Assembly: GCA_965224195.1 (NCBI GenBank)
Contig: OZ245040.1
Coordinates: forward strand, 1,664,001 to 1,728,000
Direction of reading: 5' to 3'
Length of the DNA stretch: 64,000 nucleotides
Source: Nitrosopumilus sp.
GTDB lineage: Archaea; Thermoproteota; Nitrososphaeria; Nitrososphaerales; Nitrosopumilaceae
Under the pieces are notes generated by a model. It was given only the letters and a program-made list of their open reading frames with translations. It did no database searches and was not told the DNA's origin. Below are positions 1,530 through 42,367 of this stretch, piece after piece. Each line of letters opens with the position of its first letter. The stretch's first letter is position 1. Position numbers and translations under genes: made by a program.

Positions 1530-4500
1530 CTATTTCTTTTTCATTATTTCAAAATAATAAACAATGACAGCAAACACAACGACAAAAAATATTATGGAAA
1601 TTATTAGTAATTCACTCATCGATAGTTTAGGTGCAACAGGTTCAGGTGTTGGTTCAGGTGTGTATACAGGTTCAGGTGTGTATACAGGTTCAGGTGTTGG
1701 TTCAGGTGTGTATACAGGTTCAGGTGTTGGTTCAGGTGTATATACAGGTTCAGGTGTTGGTTCAGGTGTTGGTTCAGGTGTTGGTTCAGGTGTTGGTTCA
1801 GGTGTGTATACAGGTTCTGGTGTTAGCTCTGGTGTTGGTTCCGGTGTTGGCTCTGGTGCTCTGACAGATGATGGCCTGTTGTCCCTGCCGACAATGTCCT
1901 TTAACAGTTCATCCAAATTCATATTATCATAATGTACTATGCCAGGCAGTTCCTTCAGTATGATGTGGCCATCACAGTATGCCGCAGCAGATTCTACCTG
2001 TGCCTGTTTTTGTGATTTGTCGTAACTTTTTATCGACATTACATTTTCAGAAAGCATCTCTAAACCCTCAAAGCTAAACGCATATAGAGAGATTGGCACA
2101 TGCACGGACTTGAAAAGATCTTTCATGCTGGCCTGGGATGTCACATCAATGCCAACATTGGATGGATGCCCGTCTAAGACAATGGAGGCGCCAAGGTTGT
2201 CCCCATATGTACCTGCAACTAATACCACATCATTTTCCAGTCCGCACTGGTTGTACAGCAGTAGTATTGGACTCATTGTAAAACCTACAGAGCCGCTGCT
2301 GCTGCCACGGTCAGCAGGCTGTGGTGTAGTAGGTTTTGGTGTGATGGGTTTTGGTGTGATGGGTTTTGGTGGCAAGGCATCCTCTGGTATTTCTTTAGGA
2401 GTGCTGTCAATTACTGCAGTATCTAGTTCAACACTGACTGCATCTTCAATGACAATAGGATCCCTTACGGCAAGTACTAGGCTGTCATCCTTCTTCACCA
2501 CATCTGCACCATCTGATGTTGGAATGTCATCAGCTAGTGACTTGGTGTGCTGCACTGCCGTGCTATCAGGTGTCAAGCTGGTATTCTTTGTCACATCCAC
2601 GCCGTCTGATGTTGGAATATTGTCAGCCAGTGATTTGACATATTGTTTGGTTACAGAGATATCATCTGATGTTGGGATAGTATCAGCTGGTGACTTGGTG
2701 TGCTGTTCTATTACAGCGCCAGGTGTCAAGTTGGTATTCTTTGTTACAGAGATACCATCTGATGTTGGGATAGTATCAGCTAGTGATTTGACATATTGTT
2801 TGGTTACAGAGATATCATCTGATGTTGGGATAGTATCAGCTAGTGACTTGGTGTGCTGTTCTATTACAGCGCCAGGTGTCAAGTTGGTATTCTTTGTTAC
2901 AGAGATACCATCTGATGTTGGGATAGTATCAGCTAGTGATTTGACATATTGTTTGGTTACAGAGATATCATCTGATGTTGGGATAGTATCAGATGGAGAT
3001 ATGGCATACAGTTTCACTACATCTGCATTGTCCCTTGTTGGGATGTCATCAGCTGGAGATATTGCATATAGTTTCACCACATCTGCACCATCTGATGTTG
3101 GGATGTCATCAGATATGGATTTGACATATTGTTTGGTTACAGAGATACCATCAGATGTTGGGATGGTGTCAGCTGCTGAGCTGGCATATAGTTTCACTAC
3201 ATCTGCACCATCTGATGTTGGGATGTCATCAGATATGGATTTGACATATTGTTTGGTTACAGAGATACCATCTGATGTTGGGATGGTGTCAGATGGAGAT
3301 ATGGCATATAGTTTCACCACATCTGCACCATCTGATGTTGGGATGGTGTCAGATATAGATCTAGAGTACCGCTTTACCACATCCGCATCATCTGATGTTG
3401 GGACGATGTCAGATGGAGATATGGCATATAGTTTCACCACATCTGCACCATCTGATGTTGGGATGGTGTCAGCTGCAGATATTGCGTACCGCTTTACCAC
3501 ATCTGCACCATCTGATGTTGGGATGTCATCAGCTGGAGATATTGCATATAGTTTCACCACATCTGCATTGTCCCTTGTTGGGATGTTATCAGATATGGAT
3601 CTAGAGTACCGCTTTACCACATCTGCACCATCTGATGTTGGGATGTCATCAGCTGGAGATATTGCATATAGTTTCACCACATCTGCATTGTCCTTTGTTG
3701 GGATGTCATCAGATATGGATTTGACATATTGTTTGGTTACAGAGATACCATCAGATGTTGGGATGGTGTCAGCTGCTGAGCTGGCATATAGTTTCACTAC
3801 ATCTGCACCATCTGATGTTGGGATGTCATCAGATATGGATTTGACATATTGTTTGGTTACAGAGATACCATCTGATGTTGGGATGGTGTCAGCTGCTGAG
3901 CTGGCATATAGTTTCACTACATCTGCACCATCTGATGTTGGGATGGTGTCAGATATAGATCTAGAGTACCGCTTTACCACATCCGCATCATCTGATGTTG
4001 GAGCTTCGTCAGATGGAGATATGGCATATAGTTTCACCACATCTGCATTGTCCCTTGTTGGGATGTTATCAGATATGGATCTAGAGTACCGCTTTACCAC
4101 ATCTGCACCATCTGATGTTGGAGCTTCGTCAGCTGGAGATATTGCATATAGTTTCACCACATCTGCACCATCTGATGTTGGGATGGTGTCAGCTGCAGAT
4201 ATTGCGTACCGCTTTACCACATCCGCATCATCTGATGTTGGGATGGTGTCAGATGGAGATATGGCATATAGTTTCACCACATCTGCATTGTCCTTTGTTG
4301 GGATGTTATCAGATATGGATTTGACATATTGTTTGGTTACAGAGATACCATCTGATGTTGGGATGGTGTCAGCTGCTGAGCTGGCATATAGTTTCACTAC
4401 ATCTGCACCATCTGATGTTGGGATGTCATCAGATATGGATTTGACATATTGTTTGGTTACAGAGATATCATCAGATGTTGGAGCTTCATCAGCTGGAGAT

Positions 4501-7500
4501 ATGACATATAGTTTCACTACATCTGCATTGTCCCTTGTTGGGATGTCATCAGATATGGATCTAGAGTACCGCTTTACCACATCAACATCATCTGATGTTG
4601 GAGCTTCATCAGCTGGAGATATGGCATATAGTTTCACTACATCTGCATTGTCCCTTGTTGGGATGTTATCAGATATGGATCTAGAGTACCGCTTTACCAC
4701 ATCTGCACCATCTGATGTTGGGATGTCATCAGCTGGAGATATTGCATATAGTTTCACCACATCTGCATTGTCCCTTGTTGGGATGTTATCAGATATGGAT
4801 CTAGAGTACCGCTTTACCACATCTGCACCATCTGATGTTGGGATGTCATCAGCTGGAGATATTGCATATAGTTTCACCACATCTGCATTGTCCCTTGTTG
4901 GGATGTTATCAGATATGGATCTAGAGTACCGCTTTACCACATCTGCACCATCTGATGTTGGGATGTCATCAGCTGGAGATATTGCATATAGTTTCACCAC
5001 ATCTGCACCATCTGATGTTGGGATGTCATCAGCTAGTGATTTGACATATTGTTTGGTTACAGAGATATCATCAGATGTTGGGATGGTGTCAGCTGCTGAG
5101 CTGGCATATAGTTTCACTACATCTGCACCATCTGATGTTGGGATGTCATCAGATATGGATTTGACATATTGTTTGGTTACAGAGATACCATCTGATGTTG
5201 GGATGGTGTCAGATGGAGATATGGCATATAGTTTCACTACATCTGCACCATCTGATGTTGGGATGTCATCAGATATGGATCTAGAGTACCGCTTTACCAC
5301 ATCCGCATCATCTGATGTTGGAGCTTCGTCAGATGGAGATATGGCATATAGTTTCACTACATCTGCATTGTCCCTTGTTGGGATGTTATCAGATATGGAT
5401 CTAGAGTACCGCTTTACCACATCTGCACCATCTGATGTTGGAGCTTCGTCAGCTGGAGATATTGCATATAGTTTCACCACATCTGCATTGTCCCTTGTTG
5501 GGATGTTATCAGATATGGATCTAGAGTACCGCTTTACCACATCTGCACCATCTGATGTTGGGATGTCATCAGCTGGAGATATTGCATATAGTTTCACCAC
5601 ATCTGCATTGTCCTTTGTTGGGATGTTATCAGATATGGATTTGACATATTGTTTGGTTACAGAGATATCATCAGATGTTGGGATGGTGTCAGCTGCTGAG
5701 CTGGCATATAGTTTCACTACATCTGCACCATCTGATGTTGGGATGTCATCAGATATGGATTTGACATATTGTTTGGTTACAGAGATACCATCTGATGTTG
5801 GGATGGTGTCAGCTGCTGAGCTGGCATATAGTTTCACCACATCTGCACCATCTGATGTTGGGATGTCATCAGATATGGATCTAGAGTACCGCTTTACCAC
5901 ATCTGCACCATCTGATGTTGGAGCTTCGTCAGATGGAGATATGGCATATAGTTTCACCACATCTGCATTGTCCCTTGTTGGGATGTTATCAGATATGGAT
6001 CTAGAGTACCGCTTTACCACATCTGCACCATCTGATGTTGGAGCTTCGTCAGCTGGAGATATGGCATATAGTTTCACCACATCTGCACCATCTGATGTTG
6101 GGATGGTGTCAGCTGCAGATATTGCGTACCGCTTTACCACATCCGCATCATCTGATGTTGGGATGGTGTCAGATGGAGATATGGCATATAGTTTCACCAC
6201 ATCTGCATTGTCCTTTGTTGGGATGTTATCAGATATGGATTTGACATATTGTTTGGTTACAGAGATACCATCTGATGTTGGGATGGTGTCAGCTGCTGAG
6301 CTGGCATATAGTTTCACTACATCTGCACCATCTGATGTTGGGATGTCATCAGATATGGATTTGACATATTGTTTGGTTACAGAGATATCATCAGATGTTG
6401 GAGCTTCGTCAGATGGAGATATGGCATATAGTTTCACTACATCTGCATTGTCCCTTGTTGGGATGTTATCAGATATGGATCTAGAGTACCGCTTTACCAC
6501 ATCAACATCATCTGATGTTGGAGCTTCATCAGCTGGAGATATGACATATAGTTTCACTACATCTGCATTGTCCCTTGTTGGGATGTCATCAGATATGGAT
6601 CTAGAGTACCGCTTTACCACATCAACATCATCTGATGTTGGAGCTTCGTCAGATGGAGATATGGCATATAGTTTCACCACATCTGCATTGTCCCTTGTTG
6701 GGATGTTATCAGATATGGATCTAGAGTACCGCTTTACCACATCTGCACCATCTGATGTTGGGATGTCATCAGCTGGAGATATTGCATATAGTTTCACCAC
6801 ATCTGCATTGTCCCTTGTTGGGATGTTATCAGATATGGATCTAGAGTACCGCTTTACCACATCTGCACCATCTGATGTTGGGATGTCATCAGCTGGAGAT
6901 ATTGCATATAGTTTCACCACATCTGCACTGTCCCTTGTTGGGATGTCATCAGATATGGATTTGACATATTGTTTGGTTACAGAGATATCATCAGATGTTG
7001 GGATGGTGTCAGCTGCTGAGCTGGCATATAGTTTCACTACATCTGCACCATCTGATGTTGGGATGTCATCAGATATGGATTTGACATATTGTTTGGTTAC
7101 AGAGATACCATCTGATGTTGGGATGGTGTCAGCTGCTGAGCTGGCATATAGTTTCACTACATCTGCACCATCTGATGTTGGGATGTCATCAGATATGGAT
7201 CTAGAGTACCGCTTTACCACATCTGCACCATCTGATGTTGGAGCTTCGTCAGATGGAGATATGGCATATAGTTTCACTACATCTGCATTGTCCCTTGTTG
7301 GGATGTTATCAGATATGGATCTAGAGTACCGCTTTACCACATCTGCACCATCTGATGTTGGAGCTTCGTCAGCTGGAGATATTGCATATAGTTTCACCAC
7401 ATCTGCATTGTCCCTTGTTGGGATGTCATCAGATATGGATCTAGAGTACCGCTTTACCACATCTGCACCATCTGATGTTGGGATGTCATCAGATATGGAT

Positions 7501-10213
7501 CTAGAGTACCGCTTTACCACATCTGCACCATCTGATGTTGGGATGTCATCAGCTGGAGATATTGCATATAGTTTCACCACATCTGCACTGTCCCTTGTTG
7601 GGATGTCATCAGATATGGATTTGACATATTGTTTGGTTACAGAGATATCATCAGATGTTGGGATGGTGTCAGCTGCTGAGCTGGCATATAGTTTCACTAC
7701 ATCTGCACCATCTGATGTTGGGATGTCATCAGATATGGATTTGACATATTGTTTGGTTACAGAGATACCATCTGATGTTGGGATGGTGTCAGATGGAGAT
7801 ATGGCATATAGTTTCACCACATCTGCACCATCTGATGTTGGGATGTCATCAGATGGAGATATTGCATATAGTTTCACCACATCTGCATTGTCCCTTGTTG
7901 GGATGTTATCAGATATGGATCTAGAGTACCGCTTTACCACATTGACTGCGTCCTTTGATGGAGCTGCATCAGATGGAGATATTGCATATAGTTTCACTAC
8001 ATCTGCACCATCTGATGTTGGGATGGTGTCAGCTGCAGATATTGCGTACCGCTTTACCACATTGACTGCGTCCTTTGATGGAGCTGCATCAGATACCCAT
8101 TGAAGAAGCTCAAAAGGTTGCAGGATCTCCACATCAACTGCGTCCTTTGATGGAGCTGCATCAGATACCCATTGAAGAAGCTCAAAAGGTTGCAGGACCT
8201 CCACATCAACTGCGTCCTTTGATGGAGCTGCATCAGATACCCATTGAAGAAGCTCAAAAGGTTGCAGGACCTCCACATCAACTGCGTCCTTTGATGAAAC
8301 TGCATCAGATACCCATTGAAGAAGCTCAAAAGGTTGCAGGACCTCCACATCAACTGCGTCCTTTGATGGAGCTGCATCAGATACCGAGCTGGTATATAGT
8401 TTTACCACATCCGCATCATCTGATGTTGGAGCTGTATCAGATGGAGATATTGCATGCCGCTTTACCACATCCGCATCATCTGATGTTGGAGCTGTATCAG
8501 ATGGAGATATTGCATACCGCTTTACCACATCCGCATCATCTGATGTTGGAGCTGTATCAGATGTAGACATGGCATGATCACCACTTCGATACAAAACAAC
8601 CAGAGTAGTAGATTCATCATTTAAATTTCCGCTTAGGTCACTAACAGCTCCTGGTGACATGAAAAGATACCTTAAATCATGTAAAATTAATTCAAGTAGT
8701 TGCTTCTTTTTTATTGTGATTGATAAATCCGTACCATTACCAACTTTATTTATCTTAGCCTTGGAAAGTACAACGTCATTACCTTTCCCATCACCCAAAA
8801 ACATTTTTGACAAATCTGTCTTGTCAATATGTATCGGCTCATCAAATTTGATTCCAAGAGTCCTAGTTGTTTTATCTAATTTTACAGGGTATGGCAACTT
8901 GTGAACATCAATTATATATACATCAGTATCAGAATCAGATGATGTAACTATCGCATAAATTTTATCACCAATTTCAAATGTACTGGCTTTTGCCTGATTA
9001 GGAATTGTTGTTACAACACTTACAAGTAATGGTTCATATGGATTACTCACATCAAATGTTGACACAGCATCAGATGCAGTAACTATCGCATAAATTTTAT
9101 CACCAATTTCAGATATATTGACTCCACTTAGATGATTAAAAGAAAGATAATATTCATTATATATCGCGTCTACATGTTTAGGTTTTTTCGGGTTACTCAC
9201 ATCAATTATTGACGCAGCATCATCATCAGATGCAGTAACTATCGCATAAATTTTATCACCAATTTCAAATGTTGCAACTCCGCTTGCACCACCAGTTGCA
9301 GGCGTATAACTGGTTATCTCACGTACTAGTTTAGGTTTTTTCGGGTTACTCACATCAATTATTGACGCAGCATCATCATCAGATGCAGTAACTATCGCAT
9401 AAATTTTATCACCAATTTCAAATGTTGCAACTCCACTTGCGCCACCAAGGCTGTTAAACTTTTTTGGATTAGCAACAAAACTAGCAGGAGGGTTTACTGG
9501 TGTTCGTTCATCTATTGCAGATCCTATATGCTGCAAATCTTTGGGATTAGAAACATCAAATAAATAAATACCGCTTTCACGACCCTCATAACATTGTTTA
9601 GTAATTTGATTACAAGTCCTACTAGGGATACCCTCGTCGTGAACTGAAAATATTGCATACTGTTTAGATTTGATTTTAAAAATATTGACATCAGTGAATT
9701 GTGGGTAAGGGTATACGCCATAATCTATTTCATGCTGCTTGATAATAGTTGGCTTTTTCAGGTTTGTTATATCCACTGTAAATATATTATCTTCATCATT
9801 CAAGCCCGCTAACGCATAGATGTTATTTTCAATATAATAGACTGCAACTACCCCCCCCCCCAAATCACTGTTGTTATTGCCAGGAAACATCATCGTACTA
9901 ACAAACAAAGGGTTCAGAGGATCACTGACATCATAAAAAATCAAAGATTTGCGATTGGTATCTTCTACACCAATATTTGCAGTTAACAAAAGGGCATATG
10001 TTTTCTTGTTTATGTCATCAGTAACTATTGCAACATCATTTACATGCAAAACATTGTGTGATAAAATAATTTCACTAACAAAATCCTCATGCGTTATTAT
10101 GGATGGCTTTTTTATGTCAGTAGAGACTTGGGCGTTTACATCAATTACACCATAACTTAATACGACGACGACGGTAATAAAAAACAGAATTTAATTCTAG
10201 AAAACATAACCAT
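1530..10213 (-). CDS. giant cell-surface protein: signal peptide, LVIVD-like beta-propeller, Ig-like domain, about 100 x 20-aa repeat stalk, PEPT linker, C-terminal TM anchor; 5' end frameshifted
   Basis: ORF 1530-10049 stays open upstream to about 10190 (ILFFITVVVVLSYGVIDVNAQ). One extra T in the T6 tract at 10179-10184 would join it to ATG 10213/10207, giving MVMFSRIKFCFFITVVVVLSYGVIDVNAQ. Blades read FEIGDKIYAIVTASDDDAASIIDVSNP; the protein ends in a TM helix plus KKK. Confidence 0.9.
1635..1860 (-). repeat. 12/18-bp tandem repeats encoding a (TPEP/PVYT) proline-rich linker
   Basis: ggttcaggtgtt and ggttcaggtgtgtataca units. Confidence 0.95.
2500..8570 (-). repeat. 60-bp tandem repeat array (20-aa units such as [20 protein letters not shown]) with higher-order blocks
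   Basis: 60-bp period visible line by line; 66-bp variants at about 8100-8380; block 4081-4500 recurs at 6001-6420. Confidence 0.97.
9851..9861 (-). repeat. G11 homopolymer in the 5' coding region of the giant protein (currently in frame, LGGGV)
   Basis: C11 on the + strand. Confidence 0.9.
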
Positions 10214-10218
10214 GAGGA

Positions 10219-10851
10219 CTAGCTAACAGGCAATATATCAAAAGTATAAGTGATAGAAATACTTTCACCGGCATTTACAGTCACGTCATCAATCTCAATC
10301 TGGGCAAAAAGAATCTTTGAATTAGAAGCACAGTCAGTAAAATCATTAGCATCAGCAGATACGTTTGAACATACACCAACTGAAGAGATTGTCGTAGCAT
10401 CAGGAAAATTAACATCATTAGCAAGAAACGTAAGAGGACCGATGGTGGCAATTTGACCACTTGTTGTCACATCACTATCCTGCTTGCAATTGCTGCCAGT
10501 TAGTGTGTTGTCACCATCAAAATCACTTGCAGTCTCAGCTTCACTTGAAGTAATATCGGAAGTAGAAACACATAGAGAGCCAATTTGGGCGTTATTTACA
10601 ACATCAGTGGCAGAAGTTTGGAATATTTGATTCAAAATATAATCTCCTCCTACGGCCAATAGCATGTTATTTTTTGTCTGCTCATAAACTGGAGACCCTG
10701 ATGGATCATATTTTACTATAGATATTGTACCCTTTGCATTTATGGCATCGTGATTATTTGGTGCAGAATCTGTATCATAAGACAGGCCAGATGAGATTAT
10801 GAATGCCCCTCCCCCCGCTACAACAATGGCCAAGAGGAGAAGATATTTCAT
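10219..10851 (-). CDS. secreted beta-rich protein, putative fibre subunit
   Basis: N-terminal signal/TM; NMLLAVGGDYIL and LFAQIEIDDVTVNAGESISITYTFDI motifs; 4 Cys; stop lies 5 bp before ATG 10213 of the giant gene. Confidence 0.85.
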   Translation of the reverse strand: MKYLLLLAIVVAGGGAFIISSGLSYDTDSAPNNHDAINAKGTISIVKYDPSGSPVYEQTKNNMLLAVGGDYILNQIFQTSATDVVNNAQIGSLCVSTSDITSSEAETASDFDGDNTLTGSNCKQDSDVTTSGQIATIGPLTFLANDVNFPDATTISSVGVCSNVSADANDFTDCASNSKILFAQIEIDDVTVNAGESISITYTFDILPVS

Positions 10852-11278: not shown

Positions 11279-11941
11279 TTACATATCATAATACTTTGAT
11301 ATTATATGATTTAATGGCTCCATATAGCATGCAATATTTTTTACAAAGACATCACAGGCTCTATTCTCTGAGGATATTATGATTGCTAGCTGCGATATGC
11401 CTTGCCCTATATGCTCTGCCCGCATCACGCCATGTGCAGTTGCCTGCAGAAAATAGTCTTGTACAGTATCATCCCACTCTTCATACTTTTGTGTGCGTGA
11501 TGTCTTAGGGTTAACTATAGATGGTACGCCGTCATACTCTGCAATACAGTCAGATGTGCCAGATATCTCTAGCATGTCAGAGTACAAGGGCACCTCAAGG
11601 CCACGTATGCCTGCTTATTTTGTGCAACTCTTCTTTGAGGTTCTCAAAGCGGACCCAGGAGAGCCAGAGGTGTAAGACATTCAGTATCACTGTTGTCTAG
11701 ATAATTTTGTACAAGCTTGCGTGTCTCTGGGTTCCTGCAAGCTTTGCAGTCTCTGTGATGCAACCAGCTGGTGCCTCTCCTTTTTCTTTGCGCCATTTTT
11801 TGATACCTGATTTATCTGATGCTTTGCTGAGGATGGCAGTAATTGATGGGTACTGTAATCCGTTTGGCAGTTTGTACTTTCTGCCATATGCAGTCTTATC
11901 TGCAATATTTTTGGCGTATCAGTTGGGATGTGTGTGAACAA
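11279..11941 (-). pseudogene. virus-like PD-(D/E)xK exonuclease (Cas4/MGME1-like), frameshifted
   Basis: pieces in different frames: LPNGLQYPSITAIL; EVPLYSDMLEISGTSDCIAEYDGVPSIVNPKTS...DYFLQATA. Confidence 0.7.
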
Positions 11942-19846: not shown

Positions 19847-20912
19847 GATGAGTTGTGCAATTAGTCCAATTTGAGTATAATCTCAACATTTTCTAATCAT
19901 AAGATCCAAAGCTAAGGCTGAATTATTTTCAATTCATGTTTAATTGCACAAAACTGGCAAAAAAACCAAAGCAATTCCTGTCAATAGCAGGACTAACTGT
20001 TCCACAATTTGATTCCCTATACAAGGAAATAAAGAAAAATTGCAAAACTGCAGAACAAAAGGGACTGTCCAAAAATAGAGAAAGAGACATTGGTGCAGGA
20101 CACAAGTTTGACTTGTCCTTCAAAGACAGAATTCTAATGTTTTTCATGTACTACAGAATGTACACAACATATGACATGCCAGGGATGATGTTTGATTTGG
20201 ACAAACCAAACGTAATGAGAAACATCGGATGTTTGGAGCCTGCAGTGAAGCAGTCCATATAATTGCTGCCAAAAAATATGCAGACTCAAAAAAGATTAAC
20301 GGCATGCAGGAATTGCAGGAATTCTTTCCGGAATTAGTTGCAATCACTGATGGCACAGAACAGCCCATCCCAAGACCAAAAAACAAAAAGAAAAGAAAGA
20401 CACACCATTCAGGCAAAAAGAAAAAACATGCAGTACAAAATCAAATCGCCATAAATCTTGATGGGATAACAATCCACAAATCTGCACATTCGCCTGGCAG
20501 CCATCATGATTACAGAATTTACAAATCAAAGCATCCAACATTGTCTGAAGGGTTGTCGCAGTCTTATGATCTTGGATATTTGGGGATGGAAAAAGACTTT
20601 CCAGAACAGGCAAGTGTTTTGCCATACAAGAAAAAGAAAGGAAAAAAATTGACTGTTACTCAAAAGGAGTGGAACAAGATGCAGTCAAAAATTAGAATAA
20701 AAGTTGAACATGCTATTGCACAAGTCAGGCAATTTCGGATAAATCGCGATGTGTTTAGAAACAAATTATGCAGATATGATGTGACAAGTGAAATTGTTTG
20801 TGGGACTGTCAATTTCAAGATTAAATGGAAAGAAGAATTCATTACAATTCCATAAAATTAAAAATTAAATGATAGAAAAGTTAGATTTTTGTTTGCAATT
20901 ACGCAACTCATC
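19847..20912 (+). mobile_element. IS5/IS4-like (DDE_Tnp_4) insertion sequence, copy 1; transposase frameshifted near 20257
   Basis: ends gatgagttgtgcaa...ttacgcaactcatc flanked by TA on both sides; ORFs 19936-20262 and 20229-20855; DGTEQPI, DLGYLG, RIKVEHAI. Confidence 0.92.
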
Positions 20913-21207: not shown

Positions 21208-23334
21208 ATGGATATCACTTCAATAAAGCTTCTCAAATCATTAGTTGAAGGACAAAAAGAAACAAACGAATTGATGAGTCTGCTAGGAATAAAGGAAAGA
21301 CGGTTAGCATACATAACAAAAAATCTTGTGGAAGAAGATTACATAGAAAAAGAAAATACAGTAATCAGATTAAAAGAAACACCAAAAGCTATACTGTTTA
21401 GAGATATTACACAGGTTGTAGATGTTGAGAAATTACTTCGTGATTCAAATGAAATAATACTTTCCAACATAGATGTAAACATTACAGTAGATCAATTAAT
21501 AAAAAAATCAGGATTATCAAAGACAACAACCTATAGATCTATTTCAGATTTACAATCCATTGGGTCTGTCCTAAAAAATGAAGATGTGATAAACATTGAT
21601 GAATCAAAAGAACAACTAGTTTTATTTACAAAATTATTAAAAACTGAAAGAGAGAGAAAATATGAAGATGGAAACACCGAAATTATTTATAATAATAACT
21701 CAACAATATTACGAAAAACCCCAAGTGGAAAAGTTGCAAAAGGTGCAACAACAGGATTTACACTATTTTCAGATTATGATATAGAATATCAAACTACGCA
21801 TGATTATTTTTGTGAACAAAAAAATGATTTAGAAATACAAGATGTGTTATTACATGCAGTTTATTCTGCAAATTATTCAAAAAATAAAATGGAATTATTA
21901 ATTGCAATTGTTTTTTATGTAAAACACAAGGACAATATGGATATTCTACAATTACGAAAAAATGCAACAGGGTTAGGAATATCAGAAATTTGGTTAGATA
22001 TTGAAGCTTACATACGTAGAAAACAATTGAAAAATACACATTTATTTTTGCCATGGGATGAATTTCTATCCAAAGCAAAATTATATGATATACCAATTGA
22101 AAAATACACATTACCAAAACCAAGTAATTTATTGTTTAGAGAAATTAGTGATGAGCTAAAAGAATCAAAAACAATATATCTATTTGGTGGAGAAAATATG
22201 AGAATAAAATCATTAAAGGATAGTACAAAAGACTGTGACATAGTAGTAGAAAACAAGGATGATTTTGAACATTTAGCTGAAATTCTTACTAAGATGGAAT
22301 ATGAAAGAAGATTAGAAACAAAGTATTCTGATGAAGATAGAAGAATAAAACCAGATGATATTTTTGAACATGATAAAAAAAGCAGGATTGATCTATTCAC
22401 ATCTACAATAATGCAAGATCTATCGCTATCCTCAACTATGAAAGAAAGAGCAGACATTAGAGATTATGGAAAATTAAAGGTAGGATTACTAAGAAATGAG
22501 GATGTATTTTTACTCAAAGCAATAGCAAATAGAGAAGGAGACATACAAGATATGGCTGCATTAGTCACAGGTAGTCCAAATACACCTCATGAATTACAAC
22601 ATGGCTCTTTTGATTGGGAATTGGTTTGGGAGGAAATTCTAAGACAAGAACACATTAACCACACAAAAGATCTTACAGCAACTATTTTTGATCAAATATC
22701 ATACCTTGCAAAACAAACAGGTATTGTTGCCCCATTTCTAGAAAAACTAAGGAGACATGTCATAGATGTAATGATCAAAAGATTAGTACGTGGTGGCAGT
22801 ATACCAATAAAAGAAATTGTTGAATTGTTGAATGGGGGAGATATTACCGAACCAATGATTCGAAATAGAACTGATGCATTAGAAAAAAGTGAAACAATTC
22901 AGAAATATTCTGTTGGAAGAATAACATATATCAAACTATTAAAAAATAATGAATATTCTGAAAAAGAATTAGAGATTAATACTCATCGTTTTAAAACCTA
23001 TCTTGATTGGCGTTTCGCTATTAGACAAAAACAATCAGATCAAAATATTCAAGAATTTGTAGAAGAACTACAAGATCTAGGATTTCAAACAATTGGAGAA
23101 ATTGATAAAATAATTAGGAATTCTACTGAAATATTAAAGCAATATGAAAATGAGCAGTTTTCAAAACGCCATTTTGATGCAGTTGGTGCAACAAGAATTT
23201 GTGTTGGATTAAACTATTCAGATCTTGGCAAGAAACGTTCATCAGAATATTTCATAAGCCAATTTGAAAAATATAATCATATAGCAAGAGGTAAGTTTAT
23301 TCCTGAATATCCAGTTAAAATGGTGAGAATATGA
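21208..23334 (+). CDS. fused wHTH/AbiEi-like plus Pol-beta-fold nucleotidyltransferase (DUF6036/AbiEii-like) protein
   Basis: two N-terminal HTH regions; FLPWDEF..A..Y; IYLFGGENM...STKDCDIVV; RIDLF; LLKAIANREGDIQD. Confidence 0.85.
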   Translation: MDITSIKLLKSLVEGQKETNELMSLLGIKERRLAYITKNLVEEDYIEKENTVIRLKETPKAILFRDITQVVDVEKLLRDSNEIILSNIDVNITVDQLIKKSGLSKTTTYRSISDLQSIGSVLKNEDVINIDESKEQLVLFTKLLKTERERKYEDGNTEIIYNNNSTILRKTPSGKVAKGATTGFTLFSDYDIEYQTTHDYFCEQKNDLEIQDVLLHAVYSANYSKNKMELLIAIVFYVKHKDNMDILQLRKNATGLGISEIWLDIEAYIRRKQLKNTHLFLPWDEFLSKAKLYDIPIEKYTLPKPSNLLFREISDELKESKTIYLFGGENMRIKSLKDSTKDCDIVVENKDDFEHLAEILTKMEYERRLETKYSDEDRRIKPDDIFEHDKKSRIDLFTSTIMQDLSLSSTMKERADIRDYGKLKVGLLRNEDVFLLKAIANREGDIQDMAALVTGSPNTPHELQHGSFDWELVWEEILRQEHINHTKDLTATIFDQISYLAKQTGIVAPFLEKLRRHVIDVMIKRLVRGGSIPIKEIVELLNGGDITEPMIRNRTDALEKSETIQKYSVGRITYIKLLKNNEYSEKELEINTHRFKTYLDWRFAIRQKQSDQNIQEFVEELQDLGFQTIGEIDKIIRNSTEILKQYENEQFSKRHFDAVGATRICVGLNYSDLGKKRSSEYFISQFEKYNHIARGKFIPEYPVKMVRI

Positions 23335-24218
23335 GTGAAGAAAACGAAATAGATGTTGTAGATGGTGAAAATCCTCTCCTAACAAGAGTAAAAGAGGATT
23401 TAGATGGTGAAAATATTGTAGCATTCTTAGGCCCTCCAAATAGTGGAAAAACTGTTATTGCAACATTACTAAATGATTCAATTTTTACACATTTTCTTGA
23501 AAAATATGAGGAAGAATATGAAGCAAATATGGTAAACGGTTATGAGTTTTTGAAAACTACAAGAAATGTAATGTTAGATGGAAAATTCCCAAGTACAACA
23601 TTACCAGATAATCAAGGTGAAGTCATTTTTGAAATTGTGAGAAAAGGTCCACTTGGTAAGGGAATGCAACTTAGAATTAAAGATATTTCAGGTGAAGATT
23701 ATGAGTCGTTACTAATATCAGGTGATTTAGATGCTGAAAAACGAGTAGAAAGTGTTCTACGACGACATAAAACTAGATCCATGCGTTATGGTCCACTTAG
23801 TTTTATCACAGTTGCCAAGATGTATGTGATAATGATTGATTGTTCTTTATATCAAAAATGGAAACACCTGGACCTTGATTATGCACATCTTGTAAATTCA
23901 TTATTAGATTTTCAAAAAATAGTTAGAGGTAATAGTGAAAAAATAGAAGCGGCAATTGCAATAATTCTAACAAAGACAGATCGTATACCAGATGATGTGA
24001 ATGATTCTGCAAAAGATCTTTTAGCAAAACAAATGCCACAATTTCATAAAACACTGAATATGTTGCATTCAGGTTCTAAAGAATATTTTAAATTAAGTAT
24101 AGACACCAATAGAACAACATCAAATGAGCAAGATCAGACAGGAGTAAAAGTGCCTTGGTCATACAGTAGTGATGAATATAGTCGACTCATAGTTTGGATT
24201 TTAAACAATATTTTATGA
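23331..24218 (+). CDS. TRAFAC-class GTPase (double-GTPase-2-like)
   Basis: G1 GPPNSGKT, G2 FPSTT, G3 DISGE, G4 TKTD; ATGA overlap with the upstream gene. Confidence 0.88.
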   Translation: MSEENEIDVVDGENPLLTRVKEDLDGENIVAFLGPPNSGKTVIATLLNDSIFTHFLEKYEEEYEANMVNGYEFLKTTRNVMLDGKFPSTTLPDNQGEVIFEIVRKGPLGKGMQLRIKDISGEDYESLLISGDLDAEKRVESVLRRHKTRSMRYGPLSFITVAKMYVIMIDCSLYQKWKHLDLDYAHLVNSLLDFQKIVRGNSEKIEAAIAIILTKTDRIPDDVNDSAKDLLAKQMPQFHKTLNMLHSGSKEYFKLSIDTNRTTSNEQDQTGVKVPWSYSSDEYSRLIVWILNNIL

Positions 24219-24224
24219 TAGAAT

Positions 24225-25523
24225 ATGCCAACTTGCGAACATTTTGTATACACTACAGCTAAAACCGATACAAAAACAGGGTATCAAATTGTAGCAAAAA
24301 GTAGTGGTATAAACGATCGAATCTTAAACAATATGATTAGTTATTTCTTTCCACTTGGTGTTGATGCAATGGAATTTACAGAATCAAAATCACTTTTACC
24401 TATAGGAAAGGAGCACATAGCATATTCAATAATAAAAAACATAGGAATTGGGTATGATGGTAGAGATGGAACATTATACAACCATACAATAATTATGAAA
24501 AAAGATGATTTTGCAAAAATTGAATACGATACAAGAATTCTTGACAAATATTTTATTGAAGAATATTCCATAAGAGGAGATCTAGATCAATTATACATAC
24601 AACCAGAAAAAATAGAGATAGATTTTGAATATCTAAAAAAATTAAATGTAGATTTTTTAAGTACGCTTTTATTTTATTTATTTAAAAAAAATAAAGTAGC
24701 TATTCTAAAAATAGTAGATGGGAAACTAATACAAAATATTCTATCAGTTATTCCTCCACAAATTAGATTTATGGCATTTTCTACATTAGTTTTAGAACCA
24801 ACTCGTCAAACAAAATATCAACTAATTCAGATACCAAGTAAAGTACAATCAAAACTTCAAACAAATTATACGAGTATAAATCCTGATGCATTACCAACTT
24901 CAAAAATCAAAATGGCCAAAGACATAGGCATCCAAAACATAATAGAAATGATTAATCAAAATAACCAAAAAGAACTACTTAGACTTCATAAAGATTTTGA
25001 AAAAATTATAACACAAGTATCAAAAAGTAAAAGAATTAAAATTAAAGATATTTTCAACATAGAAGAATTTGAAAATTTAGCTGAAAATAAAAGATTCCAT
25101 ATATTATTAAAAAATGTAAAAAATCTTTATTCCAGTCCTGCTTTTAATCAAGCATCTCCGAGAACCATTCTGACAATTACAAAAAAAATTGGAAAAATTA
25201 TTAAAAAATCTTTAAAATCACATGAAAAGAATAATCTCGATCAATCTGATTTTGAAAAACTGATGTCGGTTTCCAAAATTTTATTGGATTGCTTGAATTA
25301 CATTAATCAACTAAGTGAAAAGAAAATGGGAAACACAATACAACTAGAAATTGAAAATGAAATTGAAAATATAGAACACATATTGAAACAATATCCACAA
25401 ATGGAATCAATGATGCAAGAATATGAATTCAATCCATATAATTATTTCAAAGTCATATGGGAGAATGTTTTGTATTCAGCATACTCTATGGCATTGTTTT
25501 TTCTAGGCCGTAAATGGTGGTAA
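24225..25523 (+). CDS. GAP1-N2/DENN-like GTPase-associated protein with helical C-terminus
   Basis: HFVYTT...GYQIVAKSSGI, GYDGRDGTLYNHTII, ILSVIPPQIRFMAFSTL; hydrophobic C-terminal tail. Confidence 0.75.
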   Translation: MPTCEHFVYTTAKTDTKTGYQIVAKSSGINDRILNNMISYFFPLGVDAMEFTESKSLLPIGKEHIAYSIIKNIGIGYDGRDGTLYNHTIIMKKDDFAKIEYDTRILDKYFIEEYSIRGDLDQLYIQPEKIEIDFEYLKKLNVDFLSTLLFYLFKKNKVAILKIVDGKLIQNILSVIPPQIRFMAFSTLVLEPTRQTKYQLIQIPSKVQSKLQTNYTSINPDALPTSKIKMAKDIGIQNIIEMINQNNQKELLRLHKDFEKIITQVSKSKRIKIKDIFNIEEFENLAENKRFHILLKNVKNLYSSPAFNQASPRTILTITKKIGKIIKKSLKSHEKNNLDQSDFEKLMSVSKILLDCLNYINQLSEKKMGNTIQLEIENEIENIEHILKQYPQMESMMQEYEFNPYNYFKVIWENVLYSAYSMALFFLGRKWW

Positions 25524-30234: not shown

Positions 30235-31300
30235 GATGAGTTGTGCAACTAGTCCAATTTGAGTATAATCTCAACATTTTCTAATCATAAGATCCAAAGC
30301 TAAGACTGAATTATTTTCAATTCATGTTTAATTGCACAAACTGGCAAAAAAACCAAAGCAATTCCTGTCAATAGCAGGACTAACTGTTCCACAGTTTGAT
30401 TCCCTATACAAAGAAATAAAGAAAAATTGCAAAACTGCAGAACAAAAGAGACTATCCAAAAATAGAGAAAGAGACATTGGTGCAGGACACAAGTTTGACT
30501 TGTCCTTCAAAGACAGAATTCTAATGTTTTTCATGTACTACAGAATGTACACAACATATGACATGCCAGGGATGACATTTGATTTGGACAGACCAAACGT
30601 AATGAGAAACATCAGATGTTTGGAGCCTGCAGTGAGGCAGTCCATTGTAATTGCTGCCAAAAAATATGCAGACTCAAAAGAGATTAACGGCATGCAGAAA
30701 TTGCAAGAATTCTTTCCGGAATTAGTTGCAATCACTGATGGCACAGAACAGCCCATCCCAAGACCAAAAAACAAAAAGAAAAGAAAGACACACCATTCAG
30801 GCAAAAAGAAAAAACATGCAGTACAAAATCAAATCGCCATAAATCTTGATGGGATAATAATCCACAAATCTGCACATTCGCCTGGCAGTCATCATGATTA
30901 CAGAATTTACAAATCAAGGCATCCAACATTGTCTGAAGGGTTGCTGCAGTCTTATGATCCTGGATGTTTGGGGATGGAAAAGGACTTTCCAGAACAGGCA
31001 AGTGTTTTGCCATGCAAGAAAAAGAAAGGAAAAAAATTGACTGTTGCTCAAAAGAAGTGGAACAGGATGCAGTCAAAAATTAGAATAAAAGTTGAGCATG
31101 TCATTGCACAAGTCAGGCAATTTCGGATAAATCGCGATGTGTTTAGAAACAAATTATGCAGATATGATGTGACAAGTGAAATTGTTTGTGGGACTGTCAA
31201 TTTCAAGATTAAATGGAAAGAAGAATTCATTACAATTCCATAAAATTAAGAATTAAATGACAGAAAAGTTAGATTTTTGCTTGTAATTACGCAACTCATC
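30235..31300 (+). mobile_element. IS5/IS4-like (DDE_Tnp_4) insertion sequence, copy 2
   Basis: same ends as copy 1, TA flanks, 303-aa ORF 30332-31243. Confidence 0.93.
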
Positions 31301-35767: not shown

Positions 35768-36833
35768 GATGAGTTGCGTAATTACAAACAAAAATCTAAC
35801 TTTTCTGTCATTTAATTTTTAATTTTATGGAATTGCAATGAATTCTTCTTTCCATTTAATCTTGAAACTGACAGTCCCACAAACAATTTCACTTATCACA
35901 TCATATCTGCATAATTTGTTTCTAAACACATCGCGATTTATCCGAAATTGCCTGATTTGTGCAATGACATGTCCAACTTTTATTCTAATTTTTGACTGCA
36001 TCTTGTTCCACTCCTTTTGAGCAACAGTCAATTTTTTTCCTTTCTTTTTCTTGCATGGCAAAACACTTGCCTGTTCTGGAAAGTCTTTTTCCATCCCCAA
36101 ATATCCAGGATCATAAGACTGCAGCAACCCTTCAGATAATGTTGGATGCTTTGATTTGTAAATTCTGTAATCATGATGACTGCCAGGCGAATGTGCAGAT
36201 TTGTGGATTGTTATCCCATCAGGATTTATGGCGATTTGATTTTGTACTGCATGTTTTTTCTTTTTGCCTGAATGGTGTGTCCTTCTTTTCTTTTTGTTTT
36301 TTGGTCTTGGGATGGGCTGTTCTGTGCCATCAGTGATTGCAACTAATTCCGGAAAGAATTCTTGCAATTCCTGCATGCCGTTAATCTTTTTTGAGTCTGC
36401 ATATTTTTTGGCAGCAATTACAATGGACTGCCTCACTGCAGGCTCCAAACATCTGATGTTTCTCATTACGTTTGGTTTGTCCAAATCAAATGTCATCCCT
36501 GGCATGTCATATGTTGTGTACATTCTGTAGTACATGAAAAACATTAGAATTCTGCCTTTGAAGGACAAGTCAAACTTGTGTCCTGCACCAATGTCTCTTT
36601 CTCTATTTTTGGACAGTCCCTTTTGTTCTGCAGTTTTGCAATTGTTCTTTATTTCCTTGTATAGGGAATCAAATTGTGGAACAGTTAGTCCTGCTATTGG
36701 CAGGAATTGCTTTGGTTTTTTTGCCAGTTTGTGCAATTAAACATGAATTGAAAATAATTCAGCCTTAGCTTTGGATCTTATGATTAGAAAATGTTGAGAT
36801 TATGCTCAAATTGGACTAATTGCACAACTCATC
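35768..36833 (-). mobile_element. IS5/IS4-like (DDE_Tnp_4) insertion sequence, copy 3 (inverted)
   Basis: same ends; ORF 35825-36736; TA on one side only. Confidence 0.93.
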
Positions 36834-37482: not shown

Positions 37483-39108
37483 TTAGGAATATAGATTAAT
37501 TCTTTCTTGAACATGTTTAGAATTTTTAATAAAATTGGTTTTCCATTTGTCATATTCTTTTTTATTTTTGAACCATTTTACATTATTTTGTTTTATATAT
37601 TTCATAAGATTTTCAGGATTACATAACTCAATATTGATTTTAGGTATAATTGAATAATCTTCTAATGGAAAAGATTTCCAGTATTTCAATGATTTCAGAA
37701 ATTTTTTACTAGAACTATATTCATTTTTAAGAGTTTTTTTGTCAAAAATTTCAATCACTTTATCTGATTTCTGTTGTATCAATGAAGAAAGTTCAAAGAT
37801 GGAATTAGAAATTAAAGATAGTTTTTCTTCTATAACTTGTAATATTCTTATATCTATACTGCCATTGACGAGTAAATTTACAACATGTATCTTATCTTTC
37901 TTTTGACCAATTCTATCAATTCTACCAATTCTTTGTTCTATACGCATTGGATTCCAATGTAAATCATAATTCATCACAGCACTACAAAATTGTACATCTA
38001 ATCCCTCAGAACCTACAAGAGTCATAATAAGAATAGATTTCTCTGAATCACGAAAACTGTTAATTACTTTATGTCGTTCTAAAAGAGGAGTTTCACCAGT
38101 CATAACAAAAATAGTCCATTTATCTGAAAATTCTTTTTCAATAGCTTTTGTAGTTTCGGAAAATTCACAAAATATTAACCATTTTTCAGATTTTATTGTT
38201 TCAATAATTTTACGAGCAGCCATGATTTTTGGATCTTTTTTTATCAAAATCTCTTTTAATCCTACAGATTTACTAAATGCACGAGAACTACTAGAAGCTA
38301 ATCGATAATAGGTGATTTTTTCAAAAAAGGAATCATTTTTTGTGGGAATTTTTGAAATGATCTTTTTAATTTTGTCCACATATTCTGTAGGATAAGAAAC
38401 TTCCATATTTTTTATTATTCTTTTTGCAAAATGTATTCCTAAATGCTCTTTGGTAAATCGTGTTACTAATGAATTTGTGATTAAGTATTTGTTTTTATCC
38501 CAAAGATCATCAATTAGAATAGATATGGCATCTCTACTATTATGTGGAAACAATATGCTTAATTCAGAAATAAAATCATCTATAGAATTGTTTATAGGAG
38601 TTGCACTTAACCCCACCCTATAATCTGCATGAAGTGAAATACTTCTTGCATTCTTATATCCAATTGTATCATCATTTCTAAAATTATGTATTTCATCAAA
38701 AATAACTACACTCACTTTTGTTTTTTTAGATAAAGTAATCTTATTCAAAATGGATGAAGGTAAAATATACACTAAAGGTATTTTTTTAAGTCTTTTAGTT
38801 TGAAGTTCATTCTCCATGGTGGCAAATTCTTCTACATTAGTAACAATAATACATTTAAGATTAAATTTTGAAATTATCTCTTCTTTCCATTTAACTAATA
38901 ATGATGGAGGGCAAATAACAATTCCTGATTGATTGAGTTTTGAAATTAAGAATAAAAGTATGTATCCAGCTGAGATTGTTTTACCTACACCAACACCATC
39001 ACTAATTAAAACTCCATTAAGATCATTATGAAGTAATTTCATTAATGGTACCAATTGATATGAAGATGGTTTAAGAAAAGACTCTGATTTCATACCACCA
39101 ATCCTCAT
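37483..39108 (-). CDS. SNF2-family (RapA/DrmD-like) SF2 helicase
   Basis: DGVGVGKT, DEIH, SATP, GSEGLD, YDLHWNPMRIEQRIGRIDRIGQ. Confidence 0.93.
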   Translation of the reverse strand: MRIGGMKSESFLKPSSYQLVPLMKLLHNDLNGVLISDGVGVGKTISAGYILLFLISKLNQSGIVICPPSLLVKWKEEIISKFNLKCIIVTNVEEFATMENELQTKRLKKIPLVYILPSSILNKITLSKKTKVSVVIFDEIHNFRNDDTIGYKNARSISLHADYRVGLSATPINNSIDDFISELSILFPHNSRDAISILIDDLWDKNKYLITNSLVTRFTKEHLGIHFAKRIIKNMEVSYPTEYVDKIKKIISKIPTKNDSFFEKITYYRLASSSSRAFSKSVGLKEILIKKDPKIMAARKIIETIKSEKWLIFCEFSETTKAIEKEFSDKWTIFVMTGETPLLERHKVINSFRDSEKSILIMTLVGSEGLDVQFCSAVMNYDLHWNPMRIEQRIGRIDRIGQKKDKIHVVNLLVNGSIDIRILQVIEEKLSLISNSIFELSSLIQQKSDKVIEIFDKKTLKNEYSSSKKFLKSLKYWKSFPLEDYSIIPKINIELCNPENLMKYIKQNNVKWFKNKKEYDKWKTNFIKNSKHVQERINLYS

Positions 39109-39907
39109 TAGGAATAAGACCTGACTTTATTCTAAACTCTTTCATTCCAATTTTATGTTTGATAATCAAATCTGCAATAAAATCAGAATTATTACAAAAA
39201 ATGGTAGATTTTGAAGATTCTACTGCATCCATGGTTCGTTTAGTGTAACCATTTGTACTTATTACCATACCGTATTTTTTCTTGGTTGTTGTCAGAGCAC
39301 CAATAAAATCTCGAATATCGCTTGGACCCATTTTACCATTTAAATGCTTTAATTGACCTATTATTTCATACCATTTTCCAAATTCATCATGAGATATGGT
39401 TCCATCTCGATCTATGTAAAAAGATGCAGTAAAATCAATTCCCTCATCATCCGATACTTTTGGATTTAATCTAAAATTTTTAATCCATTTTAATTTTGGA
39501 TCACTTAGAACATTTTTTATTAAAATTACTGATTGAGGCTGTGTTAAATTTCTAATTTTTTCATTGACTTGTTCATGAAGAAATTCATTATATAATTTTG
39601 AGGCTAAATTAATTTCTGACCAAGTTGGAATTACCATTATTTCAAATTCTTCTCTAAATTGATGATATTGTATGGAAAACACCACATCATCCATTTCTTC
39701 ATTCTTCCAATCAGCCTTTATCAAAAATAGTTTTGACTGCAACTGTTTTTGCAGTTGAATTATTATTTCTTCATATTTTGAAATGGTGATGGTTCTACCT
39801 TTTTTGTTAAAATCTTCTATCGGAATTAATACTTTACGATTTTTATGTAATTGTGATTCTATATCTTCATCTGAAAGAATTTTTGAGATGAAAGTTTTGA
39901 GATTCAA
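39071..39907 (-). CDS. Mrr-like restriction endonuclease
   Basis: DEGIDF...GQLKH...IRDFIGAL...GMVISTNGYT. Confidence 0.85.
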   Translation of the reverse strand: MNLKTFISKILSDEDIESQLHKNRKVLIPIEDFNKKGRTITISKYEEIIIQLQKQLQSKLFLIKADWKNEEMDDVVFSIQYHQFREEFEIMVIPTWSEINLASKLYNEFLHEQVNEKIRNLTQPQSVILIKNVLSDPKLKWIKNFRLNPKVSDDEGIDFTASFYIDRDGTISHDEFGKWYEIIGQLKHLNGKMGPSDIRDFIGALTTTKKKYGMVISTNGYTKRTMDAVESSKSTIFCNNSDFIADLIIKHKIGMKEFRIKSGLIPNEDWWYEIRVFS

Positions 39908-39908
39908 T

Positions 39909-40931: not shown

Positions 40932-41233
40932 ACACTCACATCTTATTTTAACTATATAATACTCTCTTTTAAAAATTGTTTCATTACGCAATAATGGTAA
41001 ATTAAATTTAGAGTTTTTTACATTATTGACATTAAAATAAAGATTAATTCTGAAATTAACTGTGGATATGGATCGCAATATGGATCTACTTCAAATTCAA
41101 TTTTGAACAATTTTACCAATTAGTTATAATTATCAATAAAAATCTCATTTGATTAAAGAGTCAAGAGTGTTGTTGATTATAATAACAAGGCAACTTTTAA
41201 AAAAATTTAAAGGTATTACTTGTAACATCCATT

Positions 41234-42229: not shown

Positions 42230-42367
42230 ACCATATTCTAATTTTTTACGTAATTGCATATTCCTCATACTACATCTAAGATAAAATAAATTGTAAATTA
42301 TTCTTAAATATACAACTATTACTCAATCGTTTTAACAATAATTTAAAACATCTGCTGTGTTACAAAA

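Follow-up and report, generated by a model that had tools for sequence, protein, structure and literature searches.

A 64,000-nt stretch of Nitrosopumilus sp. DNA (positions 1,664,001 to 1,728,000 of contig OZ245040.1, here called the window) carries on its minus strand, as real open reading frames (ORFs), a gene for a small secreted protein of 210 amino acids (aa), P0001, and a gene for a giant protein of ~2890 aa that combines a hydrophobic signal stretch, a distal propeller, an array of strictly periodic 20-aa repeats, and a membrane anchor. We propose, at a probability of roughly one half, that this pair encodes a cell-surface counterpart of the chain-like fiber of certain phages, an assembly of beads on a rope. 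The proposal is backed by homology of the small protein to a structurally solved system, by a matching repeat period, by a matching gene order, and by a conserved gene neighborhood; from these we infer the binding itself. To our knowledge, the surface appendages of ammonia-oxidizing archaea are almost unknown, and giant genes such as this one are usually dismissed as "hypothetical adhesins."

The small protein begins with a hydrophobic segment, and its AlphaFold2 model, built with 17 homologs (mean predicted local distance difference test score, pLDDT, 75; predicted template modeling score 0.71), has a core of nine strands and two helices. Both features agree with the original prediction, made from the letters of the window alone, that this gene encodes a secreted, β-rich protein. 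Residues 40–210 mostly exceed a pLDDT of 85, and residues 4–35 form a low-confidence or disordered linker. A word search returned 16 relatives of P0001, and an exhaustive profile search returned 216 representative clusters at E ≤ 1e-3, of which 86 remain at the stricter E ≤ 1e-30. The C-terminal TYTFD is invariant among close relatives, as are four cysteines among the 17 close homologs; across 108 sequences two of these cysteines are invariant and two are present in at least 90%. Because 124 of the 137 members with a full N-terminus bear a hydrophobic leader, the leader-bearing members are probably exported cellular proteins. Curated collections had little to say about the family: P0001 itself has no match in Pfam, NCBIfam, or PHROGs, and Pfam gave scattered chance matches only across 108 members, while in PHROGs six of the 108 fall on phrog_5417, a family of unknown function, with a best E of 2.8e-4; one member matched a "virion structural protein" and another a "tail fiber protein." Neither P0001 nor a 240-aa stretch of the repeats found a match by tblastn in 50,697 phage records, and no fused, longer forms of the small protein were found, which is weak evidence.

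Profile comparisons connect this family to the monomers of phage chain-like fibers. For these we used alignments of 108 family members, of the 17 close homologs, and of eight diverse viral monomers resembling gp41, a fiber protein of the Pseudomonas podophage A1002. HHalign matched the 108-member archaeal family to the eight viral monomers at 95.0% probability (E = 3.8e-8) over 148 columns, end to end across the domain, and matched the 17 close homologs to the same monomers at 90.6%; against the gp41 of phage KPP25 alone (ORF007), the archaeal family scored 86.5% over 37 columns. Negative controls against the repeat alignment gave 0.02%. When searched against PDB sequences, the 108-member profile returned a single match, a 171-aa chain labeled "Structural protein" (26la_U/44nx, E = 0.0033), which the 17-sequence profile recovered at E = 0.069, and KPP25 ORF007 has the same 37 aligned residues as this chain. 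At the 95.0% that HHalign assigns, we regard the P0001 family as a true distant homolog of gp41-type fiber monomers.

Comparisons of fold point in the same general direction. Foldseek found no PDB match to P0001 at E ≤ 1e-3 in a fold library that predates entries 44NX and 26LA; its weak matches there include phage tail parts, among them the fiber protein gp80 of phage GP4 (8jou_a; E = 0.30, probability 0.38, template modeling scores 0.34/0.48). Among viral models, 34 matched at E ≤ 1e-3, comprising uncharacterized Caudovirales proteins of 150–200 aa, proteins of the haloarchaeal tailed viruses HHTV-1 and HGTV-1, tail fibers of Xanthomonas and Stenotrophomonas phages, and lipothrixvirus proteins. 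The nearest Atlas clusters to P0001 are viral, nitrososphaerotal (Nitrososphaerota), and bacterial; the nearest that has a Pfam family belongs to PF23140 Gp80 (score 0.89), which serves as a lead only.

The solved system of A1002 (PDB 44NX/26LA and 44NY/26GP) consists of six chain-like fibers, each of 11 dimers of gp40 (147 aa) and gp41 (171 aa), proteins that structurally resemble GP4 gp80 and VP1 gp11; entry 44NX corresponds to fiber I gp40/fiber II gp41 (PMC13730344). The dimers dock in tandem on the fiber-dock domain of a 620-aa nozzle-rope protein, gp39, with an augmented β-sheet for each dimer. That domain comprises residues 243–468, 3–32, and 96–107 (~268 aa for 11 dimers), and the rope measures ~300 Å; the GP4 fiber has five dimers, and its rope is the product of a separate gene (PMC13730344). 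In KPP25, a phage of A1002's genus, we found on one strand ORF008 (398 aa) and, abutting one another, ORF007 (171 aa, gp41), ORF006 (147 aa, gp40), and ORF005 (620 aa). The last is the rope, near-identical to 26gp/26la/44nx at 1420 bits, and its φ-P-[RTM] motifs are spaced by 19, 19, 19, 23, 21, and 39 residues.

The archaeal pair resembles this phage system in period, in gene order, and in the kind of contact that would hold it together. Rope sites recur every 19–23 residues in the phage, and the archaeal unit is 20 aa long and contains an invariant I/A-P-T; the phage rope gene is directly preceded by the monomer gene, as the giant is by the small gene (5 nt from stop to ATG); the small-protein family is homologous to gp41-type monomers; and the β-sheet augmentation of phage docking is the mechanism proposed for the archaeal pair. 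The two differ in scale and in setting. The phage rope is part of a virion and offers 11 sites on a 620-aa nozzle protein, whereas the archaeal giant, chromosomally encoded, would offer ~100 sites within ~2890 aa and has, besides, a membrane anchor at one end and a signal peptide and distal propeller toward the other. The archaeal monomers carry a leader peptide, four conserved cysteines, and extra loops, and a single monomer gene lies beside the giant where the phage has two. Leader peptides on both proteins, a membrane anchor on the giant, and homologs situated among cellular genes also set the pair apart from virion-tail components. GP4 gp80 (8JOU) and VP1 gp11 offer a looser parallel: they too are monomers of 140–160 aa that sit as dimers on a rope, separately encoded in GP4, but the match to gp80 is weak in fold (template modeling score 0.48, probability 0.38) and absent in profile (0.1%), and GP4 has five dimers only. 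Seven nucleotides past the gp80 gene lies that of a 325-aa Gly-rich protein with 10/20-aa periodicity (gp79), possibly the rope, so that the gene order would be the same there. We set aside the bead-chain neck fiber of cyanophage A-1(L) as a counterpart, since it is described as a head-to-tail series of trimers that lacks a rope.

A tblastn search with ORF007 matched 48 phage records, including that of an archaeal virus, Methanosarcina virus MetMV. The MetMV monomer (189 aa, 31.8% identical to KPP25 ORF007) is followed directly by a 501-aa protein whose C-terminus contains three or four D/S/T-rich units of ~17 aa; the two genes lie at 5893–7970 of L018, and the same record holds a second monomer match elsewhere. 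The original prediction had held that small proteins paired with D/S-rich repeat proteins occur in tailed viruses, and the MetMV monomer with its 501-aa neighbor fits that description, the units being judged by eye. In the literature, we found no paper on the 20-aa repeats, the small family, the archaeal pair, or a cellular relative of chain-like fibers; what we found is phage work, in which chain-like fibers are the subject of the A1002 paper and are mentioned in that on A-1(L).

The repeat array, which spans residues 542–2565 of the giant and amounts to ~101 unit-equivalents, is as regular as had been predicted. Of the 96 pieces into which cutting at V[VT]|K divides it, 90 have a length of exactly 20 aa, three have 31 aa, and one, of 116 aa, contains 24-aa variant units; 32 distinct unit sequences occur among the repeats. 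The predicted motif K-x-Y-x-x-S-x-x-D-x-I-P-T-x-D-x-x-x-V-V was confirmed, with K1, S6, D9, P12, D15, and V19 invariant in 90 of 90 units and Y3 and T13 present in 89. Residue autocorrelation reaches 0.55 at a lag of 20 as against 0.07–0.08 at lags of 19 and 21, and rises to 0.72 at a lag of 40; because it is higher at 40, 200, and 440 aa than at 20, it points to recent segmental duplication within the array. Tandem Repeats Finder reports a period of 120 nt in 41.9 copies (84% matches, score 4970), and DNA repeats this nearly identical would permit the array to change in length. The array is acidic, with 16% Asp and a net charge of about −1.4 per unit. Its G+C fraction (window positions 2001–8000) is 0.43, compared with 0.36–0.38 in its flanks and 0.28–0.33 over large parts of the window, whose other giant genes are likewise G+C-rich (0.41–0.46). 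A plus-strand ORF at 2110..8103 (1997 aa) is the array's antisense shadow. No domain family reached any Pfam gathering score on the repeat unit, which drew three chance-level Pfam matches (best E = 0.003), and the GGxGxD motif, looked for with RTX-type β-solenoids in mind, is absent from the repeats.

Outside the array, the giant has the N-terminal propeller and C-terminal membrane anchor that had been predicted. Seven motifs of the form φ-φ-φ-φ-D[VI][ST][ND]P..P, spaced 48–72 aa apart, mark the propeller, and a hydrophobic helix followed by KKK marks the anchor. The seven motifs are visibly LVIVD-like, though curated cut-offs do not place the propeller in that family: LVIVD (PF08309) scores E = 0.053 and 13.3 bits against a cut-off of 20.2, choice-of-anchor B scores 35.7 bits against 100, and choice-of-anchor I scores 39.4 bits against 300. 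Work on thaumarchaeal surface domains mentions NHL and LVIVD repeats (PMC7848895). PDB sequence searches returned nothing for the giant's N-terminal region and low-complexity PEPT matches only for its C-terminal region.

The start of the giant gene is less straightforward. The small gene had been described as ending 5 bp before the giant gene, and an ATG (10213–10211) does stand 5 nt past its stop, but that ATG is out of the giant's frame: it encodes MVMFSRIKFCFLLPSSSY and stops after 18 codons. The giant's own frame is open from 10190 to the stop codon at 1530–1532, 8661 nt without interruption. Its signal-peptide-like beginning, ILFFITVVVVLSYGVIDVNA, contains no ATG, GTG, or TTG, nor does the whole of the frame 5′ of TTG 10049, ILFFITVVVVLSYGVIDVNAQ; this TTG is the earliest canonical in-frame start, and its use would delete the signal peptide. 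Joining the ATG frame to the giant frame requires a 1-nt shift within a run of six T residues (10184–10179; T TTT TTA in the ATG frame). A fused, canonical signal peptide with a basic n-region would result from one added T in that run or, alternatively, from −1 slippage on T TTT TTA. Programmed −1 frameshifting at this site is not favored: because the 106 nt that begin at the site are no more stably folded than shuffled sequences (z = +1.09), we prefer a homopolymer indel, whether introduced in assembly or present in the genome as an on/off tract. Single-base homopolymer indels are a frequent form of assembly error.

The uninterrupted 8661 nt past the break, repeats and a C-terminal domain almost identical to those of an intact paralog in the window, P0002, and the commonness of such assembly errors together make it very improbable that the locus is decaying or silent, with the giant a pseudogene and the pair a functionless remnant in a transposon-ridden island. 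The points that speak for decay are the break itself, the lack of RNA structure that would favor programmed frameshifting, a frameshifted transposase copy in the same window, and a truncated nuclease fragment upstream. We infer that the break is a homopolymer error or switch rather than the mark of a dead gene. An AT-rich, TATA-like stretch lies ~25–30 nt 5′ of the small gene's ATG (by eye), and the two genes are likely co-transcribed, since the 5-nt gap is too small for a separate giant-gene promoter. Just upstream of the small gene, a 104-aa ORF (11279–11593, minus strand) matches the C-terminal third only of a phage-type Cas4/RecB-like exonuclease (phrog_298, E = 3e-18) and is probably a gene fragment.

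Homologs of the small gene keep company with giants elsewhere. All 13 genome loci that contain a homolog belong to Nitrosopumilaceae; eight of these, from five genomes, have 10-kb flanks, one lies on a 9-kb contig, and four lie on contigs of 2–3 kb, too short to judge. In each of the eight well-flanked loci a giant ORF stands within 0.03–2.7 kb of the homolog and encodes at least 1776 aa, except for 997 aa in one frame-broken copy, so that homologs of the two genes do co-occur, a point on which the original prediction had staked itself. The 9-kb contig has no giant ORF. Four distinct neighboring giants (that of L002 and L008 with its ortholog in L001 and L007, and those of L005, L009, and L013) bear repeats of ~18–21 aa, of the type P..D[GN]A...φ-x-φ, which can be aligned with the window's unit. 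One, from Nitrosopumilus, has a run of 15 units based on GMFTINANSTPSVTDNAQVT, of which 13 are exact and two are variants; one from Cenarchaeum carries ~20 copies of SMRVLAAADAPGVADGAAAG behind NHL repeats; and two further giants have units of 19 aa and ~21 aa. The giant of L010 showed no such repeats in the portion of its sequence examined. Two related metagenome-assembled genomes have small-family genes on both sides of one giant gene, in differing arrangements.

A viral origin or counterpart had also been suggested, and of this the counterpart holds up, through the homology of the fiber monomer to a solved phage system, while the genomic setting does not agree: the homologs lie at chromosomal rather than proviral loci. 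Their neighbors are housekeeping genes, such as those for a tRNA synthetase and a ribosomal protein, and genes of two-component systems, rather than viral genes. We rejected a provirus reading for the family's loci on these grounds, although the window's own copy lies in a transposon-rich island. A search with the repeat region found seven distant giants (25–28% identity), one labeled Thermoproteota. Three of them, P0168, P0171, and P0172, have repeats of ~17–20 aa of the type S-x-S-D-x-φ-x-φ-x-D. P0172 (2163 aa, on a 50.8-kb contig) lacks a signal peptide, and in its residues 288–419 it is similar (E = 7e-8 to 6e-4) to minor tail proteins or putative tail proteins from phages of Weizmannia and Brevundimonas; from this resemblance, it may be a viral protein with the same kind of short repeats.

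The assembly that we favor would work as follows. After export, the giant would stay attached to the membrane through its C-terminal helix, with the PEPT linker and C-terminal domain carrying it through the cell envelope, the ~100 units of 20 residues forming a rope of tandem docking sites, and the LVIVD-like propeller displayed at the distal tip. The 210-aa protein, exported via its own signal sequence, would dock on this rope, probably as one dimer per 20-residue unit, the rope's short strand adding to its β-sheet. The outcome would be a beaded fiber of the order of 0.2–0.3 μm bearing up to ~200 lectin-like subunits. The binding, the dimer stoichiometry, the fiber length, and any adhesive or ligand-binding role are putative. 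At the A1002 spacing of ~27 Å per dimer, ~100 units would give ~0.2–0.27 μm, in place of the 0.6–0.7 μm put forward originally for an extended chain, and one dimer per unit, as in A1002, would give ~200 subunits over the ~100 units. The original prediction also held that each repeat binds one small subunit by β-strand addition. Strand addition has a precedent in the solved phage fiber and a related monomer in P0001, but the precedent places a dimer, not a single subunit, at each site, and the binding is arrived at here by analogy. Donor-strand complementation in chaperone–usher pili likewise completes the β-sheet of a subunit with a strand of another polypeptide; there the pilus subunits donate strands mutually, whereas here a single polypeptide would give all of the strands.

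More tentatively, and in full, Nitrosopumilaceae may possess an organelle homologous to the phage chain-like tail fiber: a mega-rope of ~100 repeats with up to ~200 gp41-like lectin subunits, about a quarter of a micrometer long, with a propeller at its tip, a length set by repeat number, and a homopolymer tract at the start codon that could act as an on/off switch. If so, it would be the first cellular use of this viral fiber principle, the phage beads-on-a-rope fiber would gain a cellular relative ten times longer, and the question would arise of whether phage fibers derive from such cellular appendages or the reverse. A class of thaumarchaeal giants with ~20-residue repeats would gain a concrete and testable assembly mechanism, and a family of at least 216 clusters without a Pfam, NCBIfam, or PHROG match would gain a function. 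The hardware of viral host recognition would be linked to cell-surface adhesion, with repeat number as a natural molecular ruler.

A number of observations weigh against this reading. By HHalign the repeats score 0.1% against the phage rope gp39 and 0.04% against the MetMV downstream protein; because they thus lack sequence similarity to the phage rope, it is period, position, and gene order that carry the rope analogy. The small family scores 0.2% against gp40 alone and 0.1% against GP4 gp80 alone. Several gp41-like phage monomers precede proteins of 835–868 aa, and one of these, inspected by eye, has no obvious repeats. To these we add the out-of-frame start of the giant gene in the present sequence. 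No small gene lies beside P0002, P0001 matching the 64-kb window once only, and small gene and giant are co-directional, divergent, or convergent, depending on the genome. In seven of the 13 loci, the immediate conserved neighbor of the small gene is instead a membrane protein of ~150 aa that is absent from the window; this protein might be the anchor or a mini-rope of its small-family subfamily. Finally, the PDB shapes closest to a low-confidence AlphaFold2 model of the repeats alone are β-solenoids, none at E ≤ 1e-3.

The last of these observations leads to a serious rival, if on balance an unlikely one: a self-standing stalk adhesin, in which the repeats fold alone (for example, as a β-solenoid of ~4.8 Å per unit, ~50 nm in total) and hold the propeller off the cell, and in which the small protein is an independent, lectin-like neighbor, secreted or tethered, that shares the surface-protein islands by coincidence. 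The giant does have the architecture of a fibrillar adhesin, in that a stalk of tandem repeats, all much alike, separates a surface anchor from a distal binding domain, and the same plan, with a long stalk of near-identical repeats, is described for bacterial fibrillar adhesins and Periscope proteins (SasG, Rib, and Sgo_0707 type) and for the Marinomonas ice adhesin RII. Repeats there are described as ~70–110 aa long, folding independently and carrying no decorating accessory subunit, whereas here the unit, at 20 aa, is far below that size and is accompanied by a homolog of a fiber monomer. The AlphaFold2 model of the repeats alone consists of stacked strands, one 8-residue strand per unit, at a pLDDT of 46.6; a rope that becomes ordered once bound would be compatible with it, and so, to the same degree, would a solenoid that is poorly predicted. 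A stalk standing by itself would accommodate the paralog that has repeats and no adjacent small gene, the unconserved orientation of the two genes, and the location of the window in an island rich in transposases and surface genes. It fails to explain why a homolog of rope-docking monomers sits beside giants with repeats of ~18–21 aa in five other genomes, or why the repeats and the phage rope have one and the same period.

The same adjacency and co-occurrence of the two genes would also suit a small protein that binds the giant at one part only, be it the propeller, the C-terminal domain, or the membrane-proximal linker, or that serves in its export or assembly, rather than one that binds repeat by repeat. 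The presence of the small gene at either end of the giant gene in other genomes agrees with such a role, as does the pairing of seven of the 13 homologs with a small membrane protein that is possibly their own anchor. We nevertheless consider single-site binding improbable, in that the solved phage relatives dock on a periodic rope and in that what the neighboring giants have in common is short repeats and not any one globular domain.

Table 1. Positions of the features of the gene pair, its relatives, and the surrounding window (numbered along the window unless a locus is named)
Feature	Position	Strand	Basis or remark
Small gene P0001, 210 aa, ending ...ITYTFD	10219..10851	−	ORF; hydrophobic N-terminal signal or anchor, then β-rich domain
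Disrupted start of the giant	10179..10213	−	ATG 10213-10211 opens MVMFSRIKFCFL, out of frame with the giant
Signal peptide of the giant	10131..10190	−	VNA|Q end resembling a cleavage site after a hydrophobic core; giant frame, no canonical start codon
LVIVD-like N-terminal β-propeller	8871..10082	−	Seven D[VI][ST][ND]P..P motifs; motif search and weak family matches
Module of ~100 aa separating propeller from repeats	8568..8870	−	No family match
Repeat array, residues 542-2565	2496..8567	−	Units of exactly 20 aa (90), with variants of 24 and 31 aa
Unbroken run of 86 exact units	2895-8054	−	87 successive starts spaced exactly 20 aa, in perfect register
PKP-rich linker and C-terminal globular domain (~150 aa)	1866..2495	−	Common to paralog P0002 (202/215 aligned positions identical); no family match
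PEPT/PVYT-rich extended linker	1611..1865	−	Sequence
C-terminal transmembrane helix, KKK, stop codon	1530..1610	−	Sequence
Paralog P0002, 1655 aa	49510..54477	−	NHL propeller (10 stretches, E = 1e-104), 20-aa repeats, C-terminal domain, linker, anchor
Third giant surface gene P0003, >1720 aa	57850-63998	−	Runs off the window; fn3 domains, repeated β-propeller-like blocks, Ser-rich linkers
One insertion sequence in three copies (HTH_Tnp_4 + DDE_Tnp_4)	19936-20855, 30332-31243, 35825-36736		A 1-nt indel splits the first copy, which differs by ~3% from the intact ones
Three co-directional genes (708, 295, 432 aa)	21208-25523	+	Middle one matches Double-GTPase 1/2 (DO-GTPase) families
SNF2/DEAD helicase, Mrr-like nuclease, two unassigned genes, MT-A70 methyltransferase	37483-43027		Grouped together
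Membrane protein of ~150 aa paired with small-family genes	L003 1092-1589, L008 1750-2217, L011 554-1009, L012 528-1022; also L004, L006, L007		Directly after the small-family gene; N-terminal membrane helix, C-terminal ...KYEYF.T.W, no Pfam family

The paralog P0002 contains the same 20-aa units, with 33 successive starts 20 aa apart in register, and the identity of its C-terminal module to that of the giant (Table 1) lies ahead of the PEPT linker. The stop of the third giant gene, P0003, overlaps the start of P0004 (328 aa; signal peptide, Ser-rich linker, and C-terminal hydrophobic segment), a giant-plus-small pair of a different kind. Besides the three-copy insertion sequence, the window holds IS1595-type and IS240-type transposases, making it a mobile-element-rich island with surface genes. 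Within this island, the three co-directional genes are a possible defense module, and the helicase, nuclease, and methyltransferase group looks like a restriction-modification or defense cluster.

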